Part shown: positions 4,509 to 10,576 of the stretch, piece after piece
Layout: each line of letters opens with the position of its first letter
How positions within the stretch are numbered: position 1 is the first letter of the stretch
Origin: an uncultured virus (IMG/VR IMGVR_UViG_3300036770_001202)
Taxonomy: Duplodnaviria; Heunggongvirae; Uroviricota; Caudoviricetes
IMG/VR virus record: IMGVR_UViG_3300036770_001202
Length of the DNA: 20,000 bases
Reading direction: 5' to 3' (one strand)
The notes under the pieces: generated by a model
Database searches by the model: none
Seen by the model: the letters and a program-made list of their open reading frames with translations, nothing else
Told to the model about the DNA's origin: nothing
Translations under genes and position numbers: made by a program

Positions 4509-4516
4509 TATAAATA
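4509..4516 (+). promoter_or_regulatory. T4-type late promoter TATAAATA
   Basis: Exact gp55 late consensus, intergenic, about 40 nt upstream of ATG 4556. Confidence 0.8.
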
Positions 4517-4543
4517 AGCCTGTAATCAAATACAGGCTTTTTT
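4516..4543 (+). terminator. Rho-independent terminator of the early operon
   Basis: Stem AAGCCTGTA/TACAGGCTT, loop ATCAAA, followed by a T-run. Confidence 0.75.
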
Positions 4544-4555
4544 GTTTGGAAAACA

Positions 4556-5782
4556 ATGAAATTTAAAGAATATCTTTTAGAGCAGAAAAATACGCACATG
4601 GAACATGCTGAGGACGATGTTCTCAATCATGGCGTAGAAGGAACTCGCAACAGTATTAACGCACTCAGAGCGGTGCGTGATATGCTTGCTGGTCACTCGG
4701 AAAAGAAGGTTGACGTAACAGTTAAATGGGACGGCGCGCCAGCAATTTTCGCAGGACAGGACCCTGGTGACGGAAAGTTTTTCGTTGCTAAAAAGGGTGT
4801 GTTCAATAAGAATCCAAAAGTATACAAAACGTTCGCAGAAATTGATGATGACACTTCAGGCGACTTAGCAGATAAACTCAAAGCGTGTTTGATGTGGCTG
4901 CCAAAGATTGGAATTAAAGGCGTCATTCAAGGCGACTTACTATTTACCCAATCCGACTTAAAGACAGCATCAATCGATGGTGAAGAGTATATAACATTTC
5001 ATCCAAACACAATCGTATATGCAGTTCCCTCAAAAAGTGAACTTGCTAGAAGTATCAAATCTGCTAAAATTGGCATTGTATGGCATACGTTTTACGAAGG
5101 TGATTCGTTCGAAACAATGTCAGCAGTATTTGGTAAAGACATTTTATCCACACTTAAGAAAGACCGAAATGTGTGGATGACAGACGTAGACTATAAGGAT
5201 GTGTCTGGCAAAGCAACAATGACAAAAGAAGAGACTGAAAAAGTGACGGCAATTCTATCCGAAGCAGGTAGAATATTTCAGAAATTAGATGCTACAATAT
5301 TAAATGCAATTAAAGACGATGAAGAACTCTTGATGCGTATTAAGACATTTAACAATACTAAGATAAGAGCAAGACTACAAATTACAGACGTAAGAAAGCA
5401 TGTTCAAGAGTTAATCGATTACATACAAGAAGTATATACAAAAGAAGAAGAAAGTAAGAAGAGCGAAAAGGGTAAATTGTCCGTCACCCTTAAACGCAAT
5501 CGCATTTTGAGATTTTTCTCTGCGAGAAACAAAACATCACTTGAAAACATCTTTACCATGATGAACTTGCTTGCTGAAGCAAAGTTGATTCTGATTAAGA
5601 AACTAGACGAAGTGAAAAATTTACACACATTCTTGCTTACAAAGAATGGCTATGAAGTCACGGGTGTCGAGGGCTACGTTGCTATCGACAAATTAAAAGG
5701 TAACGCAGTTAAACTGGTAGACAGACTGCAATTCAGTTATGCGAACTTTTCGCCTGACGTAATCAAAGGATGGCAACGATAA
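4556..5782 (+). CDS. Conserved T4-like protein (DUF6267-like) with ATP-dependent ligase/covalent nucleotidyltransferase motifs
   Basis: TVKWDG (motif I KxDG), IQGDLL (III), VEGYVA (IV) and AVKLVDR (V). N-terminus MKFKEYLLE resembles a T4 capsid-targeting sequence. Confidence 0.7.
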   Translation: MKFKEYLLEQKNTHMEHAEDDVLNHGVEGTRNSINALRAVRDMLAGHSEKKVDVTVKWDGAPAIFAGQDPGDGKFFVAKKGVFNKNPKVYKTFAEIDDDTSGDLADKLKACLMWLPKIGIKGVIQGDLLFTQSDLKTASIDGEEYITFHPNTIVYAVPSKSELARSIKSAKIGIVWHTFYEGDSFETMSAVFGKDILSTLKKDRNVWMTDVDYKDVSGKATMTKEETEKVTAILSEAGRIFQKLDATILNAIKDDEELLMRIKTFNNTKIRARLQITDVRKHVQELIDYIQEVYTKEEESKKSEKGKLSVTLKRNRILRFFSARNKTSLENIFTMMNLLAEAKLILIKKLDEVKNLHTFLLTKNGYEVTGVEGYVAIDKLKGNAVKLVDRLQFSYANFSPDVIKGWQR

Positions 5783-6604: not shown

Positions 6605-7423
6605 ATGGCAGCATCAGAAGGCGTAGATTTAGAATGGGCAATTGTTGAATATTCGCGCATCAAATTAAACAAACAACGTGCAGTAACCAAAACATATTCC
6701 TCTAAGATCAAGCAGCAAGCGGAACAATGTGTCGCACACATTTTCAAAGAAGTGGGTAAGACATTTGATATCTACCACTCAGACGAAGATGTTCCGGGCA
6801 TAGGATCGATTTACGCAAAGCCAGAACCGAAGACAGATATTTGTATATTTACCAAGAGTAAGAAGTATTTTGTATCAGTAAAAATGGAAGGTGGCATTCA
6901 GTTAGCATCTGGTCAAGGCGCATCAACAGCAGAACTATTTGAATCCGCAGCAGACGCACTAAAAAATCCTACACAAAAGAAAGTTTTATCTTCTATTGTC
7001 AAAGAATTGAAGACAATGCCAACCCGTTTGCTTTCAATGGGCAATTATGACAGAATTATTTCAGAAGGTAATGAAAAAATCATCAATGAGTTTATCAAAA
7101 AAGGTAAAATCATTCAGGACAAAAGTTACGAATATTGGTTAGAGAATAACAAGCCGCATCTTCTTGGTTCTTTGCTTAAATTTGTCAAAGCAAACGATGA
7201 TTATTATGACGCTATCATTTACGAAGCGTTGACGGGTCAGAAAACACTCAATCAATTCAAAGGCGCAGTCGCAAATTCCATCATTTCTCCGTCAGGATTC
7301 TATGAAATTAATGATGCATATGTGCAAAAACTCAAACCGAAGATCAAAATGGACCTCAGAGCGAAGTCTAGAGGTGGAATTTCGTCAATTGCATTCAGAA
7401 TTGAGACTAAAGGAAGTGTTTAA
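6605..7423 (+). CDS. PD-(D/E)XK restriction-endonuclease-like protein
   Basis: N-terminal helix Glu (DLEWAI), EPKTDI, then VSVK...GGIQLASG (S-x-K variant of the D/E-x-K motif). GAGG RBS upstream. Confidence 0.6.
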   Translation: MAASEGVDLEWAIVEYSRIKLNKQRAVTKTYSSKIKQQAEQCVAHIFKEVGKTFDIYHSDEDVPGIGSIYAKPEPKTDICIFTKSKKYFVSVKMEGGIQLASGQGASTAELFESAADALKNPTQKKVLSSIVKELKTMPTRLLSMGNYDRIISEGNEKIINEFIKKGKIIQDKSYEYWLENNKPHLLGSLLKFVKANDDYYDAIIYEALTGQKTLNQFKGAVANSIISPSGFYEINDAYVQKLKPKIKMDLRAKSRGGISSIAFRIETKGSV

Positions 7424-7431
7424 TATAAATA
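7424..7431 (+). promoter_or_regulatory. T4-type late promoter TATAAATA
   Basis: Exact consensus immediately after the nuclease stop codon. Confidence 0.8.
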
Positions 7432-7440
7432 AAGCAGTAA

Positions 7441-7494
7441 CGCAGTTAGGTTAAGACAAACCTGCGGTTTTGGATCAGTCTAAGGAAAACTCCA
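7441..7494 (+). promoter_or_regulatory. Tandem structured 5'-UTR element (two similar hairpins) covering the RBS
   Basis: CGCAG-TTA-G-GT-TAAG-AC-AAA-C-CTGCG and TGGA-TCA-G-TC-TAAG-GA-AAA-C-TCCA share architecture with compensatory changes. The second contains the AAGGA RBS and the A of the ATG. Confidence 0.6.
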
Positions 7495-10037
7495 TGAAAA
7501 AAACAGTAGTATTCTCATTTGGTAGAATGAATCCCATGACAAATGGGCATGAAAAATTAGCCGACAAGATCAAGTCGGAAGCATTAAAGCGCAAGGCTGA
7601 TGCTAAACTCTACCTTTCCCATAGCACAAATCCAAAAAAAGACCCTCTTGATCACAAGACTAAGGTCAAGTTTGCCAAAAAGGCATTCGGTCCTATGGTG
7701 CAAGATTCAAACGCAAAGATCATTTTTCAGGTTCTTGAAGAACTCAACGGCAAGTATGACAACATTGTGATGGTTGTCGGTAGCGATAGAGTCCAAGAAT
7801 TTGATACAATCATTAAAAAGTATAACGGCAAGGGCGACTACGAATTTAAGTCGATTGAAGTTATTTCAGCAGGCGAACGTGATCCAGACGCAGAAGGCGT
7901 TACTGGTATGTCCGCATCAAAGATGCGCGGTTTCGCAACATCAAACGATTTTGACAGTTTTAAAAAAGGCGTGCCTTCAAAATTTTCTGATGCAGATGCA
8001 AAGGCATTATTTGCAGCAGTTAGACAGGGGATGAACTTGAAAGAAAATTACGAACAACAAGACGAAGTATTAAACTTTGCACAAAGACGTAAACGTGCAA
8101 TGATTTTCAAAAAATTAAGCAGACGTATTCAGAGAGCAAGAATGCGTCAAATGAAACGTGTAGCCGATCCAGAAAGACTAAAGCGTAGAGCAGTTAAGGC
8201 TGCATATAAGTTTTTCCGTAGACGCCTTGCTGGCGGTCAAAACTACGCAGATTTAGGAACTGGACAAAAAATTGCGGTTGATACTCGCTTGCAGAAAATG
8301 GTTCCCGTTATTAAGAAATTTGCAGTCCGTCTTGTGCCTCAAGTCAGAAAAGCAGACTTGGAGCGTAGACAGAGTATGATGGTAAAACAAGCACAAAAAG
8401 AAGAATTTGATTTGAACGATCAATTCACATTGTTCATCGAATCTAAACTGCCACAAGATAAAGACGTTGGTGGTAAAGAAGGCACACAACCATCAAAGTA
8501 TTATAAGGGTCTAGACAAAGACACCAAAGAGAAACGTGACGCACACTTCAAGCGCATGGGTCCAAGATCAGATTCCGATCCGGATGCATATCAAGACGCA
8601 CCTGGCGATAAAGAGGCAAGAGAAAAAGACATGCCTCAATCGAAGCACACTAAAAAGTATAAGCAAATGTTTGGCGAAGAAGTTGGTAGAAAGTCAATGA
8701 CAAGACTTGACCAACTTGTTCGCATGGGATTAGCAGATAAAAAACTTCTAACTGTTATCAAGCGTTCAGTTGACAAGTTAGATTCTGGAGACATGCTGAA
8801 TCCAGCAGAAAGAAAAGCAACACAAGACTTATTACAGACATTGCTTGACATGGTTCTATCTTCTGACGCATTGTTCAGAATGACACGTTCTACTCTACAA
8901 AAAGAAGATGTAGAACTGAATGAACTTGTCTACAAAGGCAATATCGGCGTTATGGAAATGTTTGAGTTTTTTCAAAAAGCAACAGCAGCGCAAATTGCTG
9001 AAATGAAGAAACTCATCGCAGAAAAGAAAAATGCTGAAGCACTCAAGTTACTGACAAAAGTAACTGGTGCAAAATTAAAATTTGATGAAGGATTCATGAC
9101 TGCAATTAGTCCTATCATTCATCATGGCTCATATAAACACGCAAGTAAAACTTTATCAGATGTAATGAAGCGCAAAGAAGGTTCTGGTAAAGATAAACTC
9201 TATTATGCATCACAAGTTGCTAAGAGTTACTCTGGTGTAGATGCTAAAAAACTTGCTTCAATGACTGAAGAAGAAGATTGGGAAGAACTTGATGGTCTTC
9301 AAATGGCGCAGATTGAAGTTGCTAATCTAGCGCAAGACGTTGATCAGTTAGCAGAAATTTTAGATTCTATGGATGAAGAGCCAGAAGCATGGGTTCTCTC
9401 TAAAATTACAAAAGCAGTTGATTACATTGAATCTGTAACAGACTATCTAGAATTCGAAGGCGATTTTGAAGATGGCATGGTTGACGATGAAGAGGAAGAC
9501 GATGGAGAATACTCTGGCATGTCTGATGACGAATTCGAAATGGAAATGGAAGAAGCATACTTGTCAATGGACAAAGAAGAATTCGGTGATTTGTATGAAG
9601 AAGTAAGTCAAGTATTCGAAGAAGTCGAAGGACTGAAAAAGAAAGCAGAAAAGTCTGGCATTGCATACAGCATTCTAAAGAAAGTTTATGACAGAGGCAT
9701 GGCAGCATGGCAAGGTGGTCATCGTCCAGGAACAACACCTCAGCAATGGGCATTTGCGCGAGTAAACTCATTCATCACAAAAGGCAAGGGTACTTGGGGT
9801 GGCGCAGACAGCGATCTTGCTGCTAAAGTAAAAAAGAACGAAGAATTTTCAAAGTTTGCTGAAGCACTCGAATGGGGTACAGATGAAATGCGTATTGCTT
9901 ACGCCAGAACAACACCAGGTCAAAGCGATGAAATTATAAATGCAATGTATTCAGCAGACAAAGCACTGGAGGTTATGAATAATGCAAATCGCCAAAGATT
10001 GTTTAAATTGTATTCCGAAGACGAGAAAAAATCATGA
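7494..10037 (+). CDS. Phage cytidyltransferase-like (HxGH-class) nucleotidyltransferase fused to a long modular C-terminal region
   Basis: FGRMNPMTNGH (T/HxGH), VVGSDR and SAGERDPDAEGVTGMSASKMR in the first ~185 aa, then basic, acidic and DUF5824-like (KKAEKSG...YDRGMAAW..GHRPG.TPQQWAFARVNSF) modules. Start ATG 7494 with AAGGA RBS. Confidence 0.8.
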   Translation: MKKTVVFSFGRMNPMTNGHEKLADKIKSEALKRKADAKLYLSHSTNPKKDPLDHKTKVKFAKKAFGPMVQDSNAKIIFQVLEELNGKYDNIVMVVGSDRVQEFDTIIKKYNGKGDYEFKSIEVISAGERDPDAEGVTGMSASKMRGFATSNDFDSFKKGVPSKFSDADAKALFAAVRQGMNLKENYEQQDEVLNFAQRRKRAMIFKKLSRRIQRARMRQMKRVADPERLKRRAVKAAYKFFRRRLAGGQNYADLGTGQKIAVDTRLQKMVPVIKKFAVRLVPQVRKADLERRQSMMVKQAQKEEFDLNDQFTLFIESKLPQDKDVGGKEGTQPSKYYKGLDKDTKEKRDAHFKRMGPRSDSDPDAYQDAPGDKEAREKDMPQSKHTKKYKQMFGEEVGRKSMTRLDQLVRMGLADKKLLTVIKRSVDKLDSGDMLNPAERKATQDLLQTLLDMVLSSDALFRMTRSTLQKEDVELNELVYKGNIGVMEMFEFFQKATAAQIAEMKKLIAEKKNAEALKLLTKVTGAKLKFDEGFMTAISPIIHHGSYKHASKTLSDVMKRKEGSGKDKLYYASQVAKSYSGVDAKKLASMTEEEDWEELDGLQMAQIEVANLAQDVDQLAEILDSMDEEPEAWVLSKITKAVDYIESVTDYLEFEGDFEDGMVDDEEEDDGEYSGMSDDEFEMEMEEAYLSMDKEEFGDLYEEVSQVFEEVEGLKKKAEKSGIAYSILKKVYDRGMAAWQGGHRPGTTPQQWAFARVNSFITKGKGTWGGADSDLAAKVKKNEEFSKFAEALEWGTDEMRIAYARTTPGQSDEIINAMYSADKALEVMNNANRQRLFKLYSEDEKKS

Positions 10038-10576
10038 TACCATTTAAAAAATTTAACGCAATCAGCGAAGCACTTCAATGGCACTTAGACAATCAGTTGC
10101 CTCTAAGTGAGAACGTATTTCGCGTAGGTTCAAAAAGTTATTTTGATCTTTATCGTGAAGCAAGAAAACTTCACGAAGATGGCGCTATCGAATTTGATGG
10201 TTGGGATAAGTATCTTTTAGAAGAAACTGATATTGGTAAATTTGCATTCAACGAAGAAGGACAACCTGTACCTCTTGACTGTCCAATGTATGAAGAAGAA
10301 GAAAAAGACGTAGAAATTGGAAAGCCAAAGCGTGGTGGTCCTAAAAAGTTTTATGTGTATGTTCGTAAGCCAGATGGTGGTATCAAGAAAGTTACATGGG
10401 GTGATACAACTGGTTTATCCGTTAAGATGAATGATCCTGAAGCGAGAAAATCATTTGCTGCTAGACACCAATGCTCAATGCAAAAAGATAGAACTTCAGC
10501 GGCGTATTGGGCTTGCAACACTCCTCGATATGCAAAACAATTAGGACTTAGCGGTGGCGGAAACTTCTACTGGTAA
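10034..10576 (+). CDS. Two-module hypothetical protein with DUF6321-like C-terminal domain
   Basis: KKFYVYV...KKVTWGD...ARKSFAARHQC...SAAYWAC. ATGA overlap with the upstream gene. Confidence 0.65.
   Translation: MIPFKKFNAISEALQWHLDNQLPLSENVFRVGSKSYFDLYREARKLHEDGAIEFDGWDKYLLEETDIGKFAFNEEGQPVPLDCPMYEEEEKDVEIGKPKRGGPKKFYVYVRKPDGGIKKVTWGDTTGLSVKMNDPEARKSFAARHQCSMQKDRTSAAYWACNTPRYAKQLGLSGGGNFYW

Follow-up and report, generated by a model that had tools for sequence, protein, structure and literature searches.

Covarying tandem hairpins in the leader of a late gene module of T4-like phages, a candidate protein-binding translational operator

The window, that is the whole stretch of DNA analysed here, is 20,000 nt long and comes from an uncultured virus of the Caudoviricetes (IMG/VR IMGVR_UViG_3300036770_001202). 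The following features lie at the locus:

7424..7431, + strand: T4-type late-promoter box TATAAATA, one of three such boxes found by sequence scan in the window
7441..7466, + strand: hairpin 1, CGCAG (7441-45)/UUAG/GU/UAAG/AC/AAAC/CUGCG (7462-66), from the sequence, the minimum free energy (MFE) fold and covariation of the outer and inner stems
7467..7470, + strand: linker GUUU between the hairpins, from the sequence
7471..7494, + strand: hairpin 2, UGGA (7471-74)/UCAG/UC/UAAG/GA/AAAC/UCCA (7491-94), from the sequence, the MFE fold and comparison
7494..10037, + strand: gene behind the leader, encoding 847 aa, from the open reading frame and from profile and structure work
Residues 1-194 of its product, + strand: HxGH (TNGH) nucleotidyltransferase-like domain (CTP_transf_like, E 0.007, below the cut-off)
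Residues 188-300, nt 8055-8393, + strand: Arg-rich four-helix domain, from domain alignment and a model with pLDDT 88
Residues 707-774, nt 9612-9815, + strand: DUF5824, from a profile match with E 5.5e-18

The stop codon TAA of the upstream gene (7421-7423) abuts the TATAAATA box, and hairpin 1 begins 9 nt past the box. The identity of the box as a late promoter and the location of the start site are taken from the T4 literature (PMC3014915, in excerpt). Both hairpins have a common design, with an outer stem, an internal loop made of 5'-UNAG and 5'-AANC, a 2-bp inner stem and a tetraloop. The original prediction had described two look-alike units of this architecture, the second holding the Shine-Dalgarno sequence and ending on the start codon. 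The sequence reads as claimed, and the MFE fold consists of exactly the two hairpins; AAGGA (7482-7486) sits in the loop and the 3' inner stem of hairpin 2, whose final base is the A of the ATG at 7494-96. This ATG, which is kept in homologues, is the start codon of the gene, and not the TTG at 7470 given in the list of open reading frames. The 847-aa product matches phrog_3041 and phrog_395, 'cytidyltransferase'.

On the evidence of the window alone, the hairpin pair is not beyond chance, since the leader folds with an MFE of -10.9 kcal/mol at a z of only -0.20 (74 of 200 shuffles were at least as stable) and at least two matches to the core pattern TYAGNNTAAGNNAAAC turned up in 12 of 200 shuffles of the window. 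In the window itself this pattern has two sites only, both of them the hairpins, where 0.37 matches were expected. It was the comparison with relatives that settled the reality of the hairpins, and at the level of sequence the observation is confirmed.

For this comparison the N-terminal 202 aa of the downstream protein were used to collect 55 viral-contig loci, and the upstream 100 nt of each were inspected. The expectation that the motif would stand upstream of homologous genes held for loci with 61-100% protein identity but failed for more distant loci, where it is missing. Alignment of 28 distinct homologous leaders gave 31 invariant columns, and RNAalifold independently recovered both hairpins, 4 of whose 11 pairs are compensatory. 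The structure drawn in the original prediction is 96.5% paired in these leaders, as against 22-44% when the partners are slid, and five pairs are altered on both sides. Covariation was 0.177 compared with 0.085 in shuffles, a value reached by none of 500 shuffles. Pooling of hairpins 1 and 2 as copies of a single unit gave 38 distinct units, in which all five core pairs of the stems were 100% paired with differing letters, and covariation rose to 0.636 against 0.235; 45 distinct units aligned to a covariance model were 96.7% paired, in an alignment that is itself fitted to the model. Distant members have wholly swapped outer stems, namely GCGU:ACGC (L045), UUCGAG:CUCGAG (in the cultured phage DLP_6), GCAUAG:CUAUGC (L262) and GUGG:CCAC (L254). 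The pairing, the RNAalifold result and the shuffles bear out the view that this is a structured RNA whose stems covary and whose loop and bulge letters are fixed.

Which letters are fixed differs in part from what had been proposed. The UAAG loop is invariant in the window, but across relatives it is mostly a loop of the YNMG type, and the constant part is the internal loop UNAG/AANC; the letters invariant in all 38 units are U7, A9, G10, A14, G16, A19 and C22. The tetraloops of these units are UAAG, UACG, CACG, CAAG and UAUG, of which all but UAUG make a YNMG/UNCG-type cap, with a Y-N-M-G loop on a closing Watson-Crick pair (36 of 38 units, the two exceptions being UAUG). Distant members have UUCG (L258, L261) or CUAG (L254), which also fit YNMG, and some of them carry a 3-bp stem with a triloop instead of the tetraloop cap while keeping UNAG/AAAC. 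The linker between the hairpins differs in both length and sequence among relatives, from -3 to 13 nt. The letters of the internal loop in question show no variation, and covariation therefore cannot tell whether a G-C pair is flanked there by two 3-nt bulges or the loop is a symmetric 4x4 one. In a single case, hairpin 2 of L111, the 5' side has changed from G to A together with a change from A to G on the 3' side, which would keep a purine-purine pair in the symmetric reading and hints at G.A pairing. Two other arrangements were considered and rejected: loop-loop or bulge-loop pairing between the units (UUAG with CUAA) is not kept across relatives, and hairpin 1 followed by GUUUU could resemble a terminator only in close kin of the window, where alone the U run is found.

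Leader identity to the window is 70-100%, while identity at near-fourfold third codon positions of the adjoining gene is 33-57% in 25 of 26 comparisons. Since the leader is the better conserved of the two, this comparison indicates that it is under purifying selection.

In order to place the motif among known RNAs and genomes, several searches were made. Rfam 15 gave no match at gathering thresholds over the whole window, and on 7380-7540 at E up to 10 it gave five chance-level matches only (E 2.2-8.3; 9-14 bits against thresholds of 44-208), none of them on the hairpins' own architecture; to this depth the motif is, as had been supposed, no named Rfam family. Listings of the literature on T4 late-promoter leaders and on candidate structured phage RNAs showed no description of the motif, and no papers were found on 'cytitidyltransferase' or on DUF5824. 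Judged by sequence comparison, the motif defines a family of phage leader RNAs that is new and uncatalogued and whose general kind is known. A tandem covariance model (R1) gave one strong match per record (79-84 bits) in five records, one of which is a complete 149.6 kb genome, and all its other matches had E of at least 0.76. In complete genomes of 150 and 222 kb, a single-unit model (R2) placed the unit at this locus and nowhere else, the one further match in the two genomes having E 0.22. With one strong match per genome from these models, the motif is confined to this gene module.

Viral contigs scanned for the exact pattern yielded at least 120 stretches. The 80 examined included many new phage leaders and about two dozen chance matches inside coding DNA, which had no promoter box or stem. 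Candidates were filtered by a script for the core, pairing in the inner stem, 3 bp or more in the outer stem, a promoter-like box no more than 30 nt away and an open reading frame downstream, and 57 distinct leaders passed, 45 tandem and 12 single; L111, scored as single, has a degenerate second unit that the pattern missed. A GC-rich contig (L107/L155) that has the core and a 3+4 bp stem and lacks both promoter box and open reading frame was set aside as possibly a chance match. Outside the script's set, a single unit in L045 was detected by the models with filters off, and the cultured Stenotrophomonas phage DLP_6, which had been left out of model building, carries a single unit just upstream of the AGAGGAA-N5-ATG of its 'cytitidyltransferase' gene. 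Neither the cyanophages P-TIM68 and S-MbCM100 nor HTVC008M, phAPEC6 and PA5oct have the motif, and they have little or no leader before the gene. A scan of 185,579 genomes of bacteria and archaea gave one match to the exact pattern of hairpin 1, on a phage-like contig of 2.5 kb. This contig (L195, CAILUB010000105.1), from a Cytophagaceae MAG bin, contains a late promoter, both hairpins and a phage gene start; probably it is DNA of a phage that was wrongly assigned to the MAG.

In each of the 57 leaders, for which the script required such a box, an octamer resembling a late promoter precedes the first stem by 5-12 nt (mode 9-10), and both hairpins are thus whole in the late transcript. At T4 gene e and I-TevI, by comparison, the late promoter lies inside the 5' arm of an inhibitory hairpin, which late transcripts lack (PMC3014915, in excerpt). 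Start-site sequestration of this kind was excluded here, because both hairpins lie wholly downstream of the promoter. Occlusion of the ribosome-binding site, as originally proposed, is true of hairpin 2 in the window but is not general: the 12 single-hairpin leaders have a free AGGA or GAGG Shine-Dalgarno 5-10 nt downstream of the hairpin, and in a large group of leaders the ATG lies 6-7 nt past hairpin 2.

A hairpin so close to the promoter might act without any partner, as a structural 5' element that protects the late mRNA from 5'-end-dependent decay or positions the start region. By the T4-type spacing of the start site from the late promoter box, a first stem 5-12 nt past the box is 0-7 nt from the start site. 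The very stable YNMG/UNCG-type tetraloops seen in 36 of the 38 units would suit such a role (YNMG family: PMC2346598, in excerpt), and T4 itself uses start-region structures, as at genes 25 and 38 (PMC3014915, in excerpt). Protection, however, needs neither fixed internal-loop letters, of which U7, A9, G10, A19 and C22 are invariant in 38 units, nor a fixed 2-bp spacing and confinement to one gene per genome, and the predicted stability is ordinary. We consider a partner-less element rather unlikely. A protein docking site fits better in five features, which are the fixed internal loop, the fixed 2-bp spacer, the stable cap, the weak intrinsic stability and the placement at or next to the start site of a single gene in each genome; the weak fold (z -0.2) is as expected of a site that needs a partner.

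The first gene after the leader differs among relatives, and may encode the nucleotidyltransferase, the Arg-rich helical domain, DUF6267 or DUF5824. Transferase-first leaders precede either the GRMNPMTNGH form or a divergent GGGFQPFHxGH form. In a split form (G008), the promoter and hairpins stand directly before the Arg-rich gene, and a separate transferase gene precedes the promoter; in L231 the giant fusion behind the leader begins with DUF6267; in L190 the first gene is DUF5824 only; and in G010 it is a DUF5824/DUF5661 gene with neither transferase nor Arg-rich domain. Since the first gene varies in this way, the arrangement of these loci indicates that the motif belongs to the gene module and not, as had been assumed, to the nucleotidyltransferase. 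The module itself has, on the sequences compared, been repeatedly split and fused among relatives.

These gene arrangements also bear on the possibility of a riboswitch, in which the internal loops would bind a small molecule, such as a nucleotide or cofactor linked to the transferase, and thereby change access to the start site, the tandem arrangement providing cooperativity. Conserved letters in an internal loop between covarying stems, with a less constrained apical loop in distant members, would be in keeping with this, as would the tandem arrangement and the HxGH nucleotidyltransferase that the module usually includes or adjoins. Against it, the motif matches no Rfam family even at E up to 10, its exact hairpin 1 pattern is missing from bacterial genomes apart from the phage-like contig, and it is missing from the four cultured cyanophage and jumbo-phage transferase homologues examined and from HTVC008M. 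It also precedes genes without a transferase domain (G008, G010), single isolated units exist, and inspection of the leader alignment showed no conserved alternative pairing typical of an expression platform. We regard a riboswitch as unlikely. A narrower version would have a phage-only aptamer of T4-like viruses, whose UNAG/AANC senses a nucleotide-type metabolite of the HxGH transferase/DUF6267 (KxDG) module and would adjust a late function of the virion stage to conditions in the infected cell; it appears improbable to the same degree.

Two known riboswitch classes were compared directly. Guanidine-II (mini-ykkC) and NAD+-I (nadA) riboswitches have two small similar tandem stem-loops before the start codon, and in guanidine-II each hairpin is capped by an ACGR tetraloop. 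The tandem layout is a likeness to both; these classes are bacterial, and the nadA consensus is different. Guanidine-II was rejected, with no ACGR in the loop register supported by covariation and no Rfam match, and so was NAD+-I, with no match even at E up to 10 and the tandem layout as its sole likeness.

The other proposal of the original prediction, that the hairpins could be an autogenous operator for the nucleotidyltransferase or its Arg-rich module, led to the domain itself. In domain alignment, the Arg-rich region proved to be a genuine domain, about 110 aa long and with a conserved pattern. Its four-helix model (pLDDT 88) matches no known RNA-binding fold or solved structure (best Foldseek E 2), and searches with its sequence gave no PDB match and no Pfam match at E up to 1. 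Among loci L001-L055, all tandem-motif loci that could be read for at least 243 aa have 10-14 Arg per 40 aa, with the exception of L042, and the eight motif-less loci have at most 5. The Arg count in this gene is at most 6 in five motif-less cultured homologues and 13 in the motif-bearing DLP_6. When loci were collected through the Arg-rich domain alone, 61 of 76 had an upstream hairpin match in the same orientation (E up to 0.1), and in a 62nd (L261, with the UUCG cap) the hairpin was visible with filters off. As to the 14 without a match, two (L240, L267) are cut off upstream, the upstream DNA covered in three (L228, L229, L234) is 250 nt, and the remaining nine are distant Lys-rich stand-alone forms directly behind another gene. 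There are exceptions in the other direction too: L045 has one hairpin and no Arg-rich domain, only a Lys-rich stretch, and G010 and its kin have two hairpins and no Arg-rich domain anywhere on the 28 kb fragment. The co-occurrence of hairpins and domain is suggestive only, because much of it reflects shared ancestry, not many independent events. On these sequences, the Arg-rich-module interpretation gains correlative support and the nucleotide-riboswitch one gains none, and the original interpretation as a whole is partly supported.

Two observations on individual Arg-rich loci may be recorded here. In L042 the frame from 1501 ends after 205 aa at the start of the Arg-rich domain (...AGRRKR), and the near-identical L043 continues; the stop may be a frameshift or an assembly error. 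A further exception to the co-occurrence is Pelagibacter phage HTVC008M, whose gp142 (L273 1474-1845) is a stand-alone gene of 123 aa for the Arg/Lys-rich domain, with no leader or hairpin, which overlaps the previous gene and lies 6 kb downstream of the cytidyltransferase gene.

An Arg-rich protein encoded directly behind promoter-proximal hairpins also recalls transcription antitermination. The lambda N gene lies behind nutL, through which N represses its own translation, and the HK022 put element consists of two tandem hairpins. By analogy, the hairpins might be a nut/put-like RNA that acts on transcription, modifying RNA polymerase for read-through of the late operon. They would be the first RNA to emerge after the promoter, they are two in tandem like put, and the gene for the Arg-rich domain follows directly, as N does behind nutL (nut/boxB: PMC2724277, in excerpt). 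On the other hand, no convincing + strand terminator-like site was found between the motif and 11,530, and the loops are tetraloops, not boxB-type pentaloops. Antitermination is not known to be required in T4-type late transcription, and we think a role of this kind very unlikely. The likeness to lambda N and nutL boxB is that of a promoter-proximal hairpin followed by an Arg-rich protein gene (nut components: PMC2724277, in excerpt). They differ in that boxB has a GNRA-like pentaloop and an adjacent boxA, and N is a 107-aa antiterminator; here the caps are YNMG tetraloops, the Arg-rich domain forms a folded helical unit of 110 aa within a large protein, and the operon was found to have no terminators, as far as 11,530, that would need overriding.

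We infer that the binder is a protein rather than a small molecule, and it is by inference too that we name this protein and take the outcome to be translational repression. In the reading that we favour tentatively, and to which we give slightly less than an even chance on the sequence evidence, the hairpins are a protein-binding translational operator, for which the Arg-rich domain of the gene's own product is the leading candidate partner. The two hairpins would form the 5' leader of a late phage mRNA and serve as a cis-acting operator. Each unit would be a small rigid hairpin, with an outer stem of 3-6 bp, the UNAG/AANC loop, exactly 2 bp and a stable YNMG-type cap, whose internal loop offers a protein a sequence-specific place to dock; a pair of units would accept a dimer or two copies of the protein. 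On binding, the protein would lend stability to a fold that is weak by itself and would block access of the 30S subunit, since the last unit abuts or overlaps the Shine-Dalgarno and the ATG, and the level of the module's product would in this manner be set late in infection. The best candidate binder would be the product itself, through its conserved Arg-rich four-helix domain, which would amount to autogenous control.

Operators of this general kind have precedents, each of which matches the hairpins in part. The T4 gp43 hairpin operator and the gp32 leader pseudoknot are structured start-site leaders bound by their own product (PMC3014915, in excerpt). Like them, the hairpins are gene-specific, occur once per genome and stand in a T4-type mRNA leader at the translation start. 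There is no likeness in sequence or shape, and the T4 examples belong to early or middle genes of DNA-binding proteins, whereas the hairpins here lie in a late transcript, are tandem, have internal loops and have a binder that is only proposed. In the MS2, Qbeta and PP7 replicase operators, binding of a coat-protein dimer to a small hairpin at the start site represses translation. The hairpins resemble these in being small, in their fixed unpaired bases and in holding or abutting the start site; they differ from them in that the RNA-phage operators are single hairpins with a bulged A, no internal loop and a known coat-protein partner. The E. coli thrS operator has two similar leader hairpins, each bound by one subunit of a dimer, and the one proximal to the Shine-Dalgarno blocks the ribosome. 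The likeness is again two similar hairpins in a leader, one of them beside the Shine-Dalgarno, but the thrS hairpins mimic tRNA anticodon arms and have 7-nt loops, and those described here have no tRNA likeness. In the enterovirus cloverleaf, a YNMG tetraloop caps stem-loop D and is bound by the viral 3C protein (PMC2346598, PMC5633025, both in excerpt). As far as these excerpts describe it, stem-loop D is likewise a viral 5' hairpin with a YNMG cap and a non-canonical stem region that serves as a protein site; it differs in belonging to a eukaryotic RNA virus and in serving replication, not translation.

Sites of two known RNA-binding proteins were also considered. CsrA/RsmA sites have GGA in each hairpin loop, within an A(N)GGA core. 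Hairpin 2 mostly reads A(A/C)GGA, and hairpin 1 has GGC or GAC (UAAGAC in the window); CsrA-type sites were rejected because hairpin 1 lacks GGA. A second idea is that the hairpins mimic the rRNA site of a host ribosomal protein, namely that of S8 in helix 21, which shares AAGUC...GA.AC with hairpin 2. E. coli 16S rRNA reads AAGUC at 595-599 and GAUAC at 639-643, and hairpin 2 reads AAGUC...GAAAAC, with an invariant G-C (38 of 38) at the matching place. The S8 site needs a (G597-C643)-U641 triple, an invariant A642 5' of C643 and an A595-(A596-U644) triple (PMC4176348, in excerpt). In the hairpins, by contrast, A, C or U may precede the C, the 3' bulge is 3 nt rather than 2, and the equivalent of U644 is in a covarying Watson-Crick pair. 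The hairpin model also finds nothing in E. coli 16S, 23S and 5S rRNA (best E 0.61, 0.33). Mimicry of S8 was rejected on these defining triples, and we give it next to no probability. A separate stretch of E. coli 23S rRNA at about 621-634 (L274 740-753), AGCCGAAGGGAAAC, has the core layout of AG, a 2-bp stem, a 4-nt loop and AAAC; as a relative of the hairpin unit it scores E 1.6, and it was taken as a chance match because the core pattern has no matching outer stem.

Structured regulatory RNAs of phage genomes are poorly charted, and this hairpin family is small and sharply defined. Its covariation support spans many uncultured freshwater and marine T4-like phages, and its presence in the culturable Stenotrophomonas phage DLP_6 makes it directly testable. 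The motif marks a late module composed of DUF6267 with KxDG, an HxGH transferase, a new Arg-rich helical domain and the very widespread DUF5824, and the hairpins give a handle on how this module is controlled. If the Arg-rich domain is the partner, they would constitute a compact new RNA-protein recognition system, and if a metabolite is, a virus-restricted riboswitch class.

Several features of the module were noted in addition. The transferase and DUF6267 have no sequence relatives in the PDB and no useful NCBIfam match. The DUF6267 protein of the window (4556-5782) has the motif VKWDGAP, which we take to be a KxDG-like motif of ligase/capping-type nucleotidyltransferases. The phrog_455 profile joins DUF6267 to the transferase, and in L227 and L231 DUF6267 is part of a fusion with the entire module, which points to one functional unit of two nucleotidyl-transfer domains. 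DUF5824 has a core of about 80 aa with 60-80% identity, occurs in 2165 protein clusters (E up to 0.001), and is often C-terminal in proteins of very different lengths, so that it looks like a mobile module; its four-helix model (pLDDT 75) had no PDB match at E up to 0.001. The separate 180-aa open reading frame at 10034-10576 of the window is joined to the end of the upstream protein in G009 (L189) and G006, the G009 fusion being 972 aa long and 83% identical to it over 172 aa.

Shortly before the DUF6267 gene (ATG 4556), another TATAAATA box (4509-4516) overlaps with a hairpin of 9 perfect base pairs at 4516-4539. A T run follows this hairpin, which is scored as a terminator on either strand. 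Late transcription of the T4 type from this box would begin within the 5' arm of the hairpin, so that transcripts from upstream could terminate there and late transcripts would be free of it. In two distant variants, the module is followed by a small protein with the motif FHWNV.G.NF.QYH (L187 3241-3798; L190 3223-3663), presumably ferritin/Dps-like.
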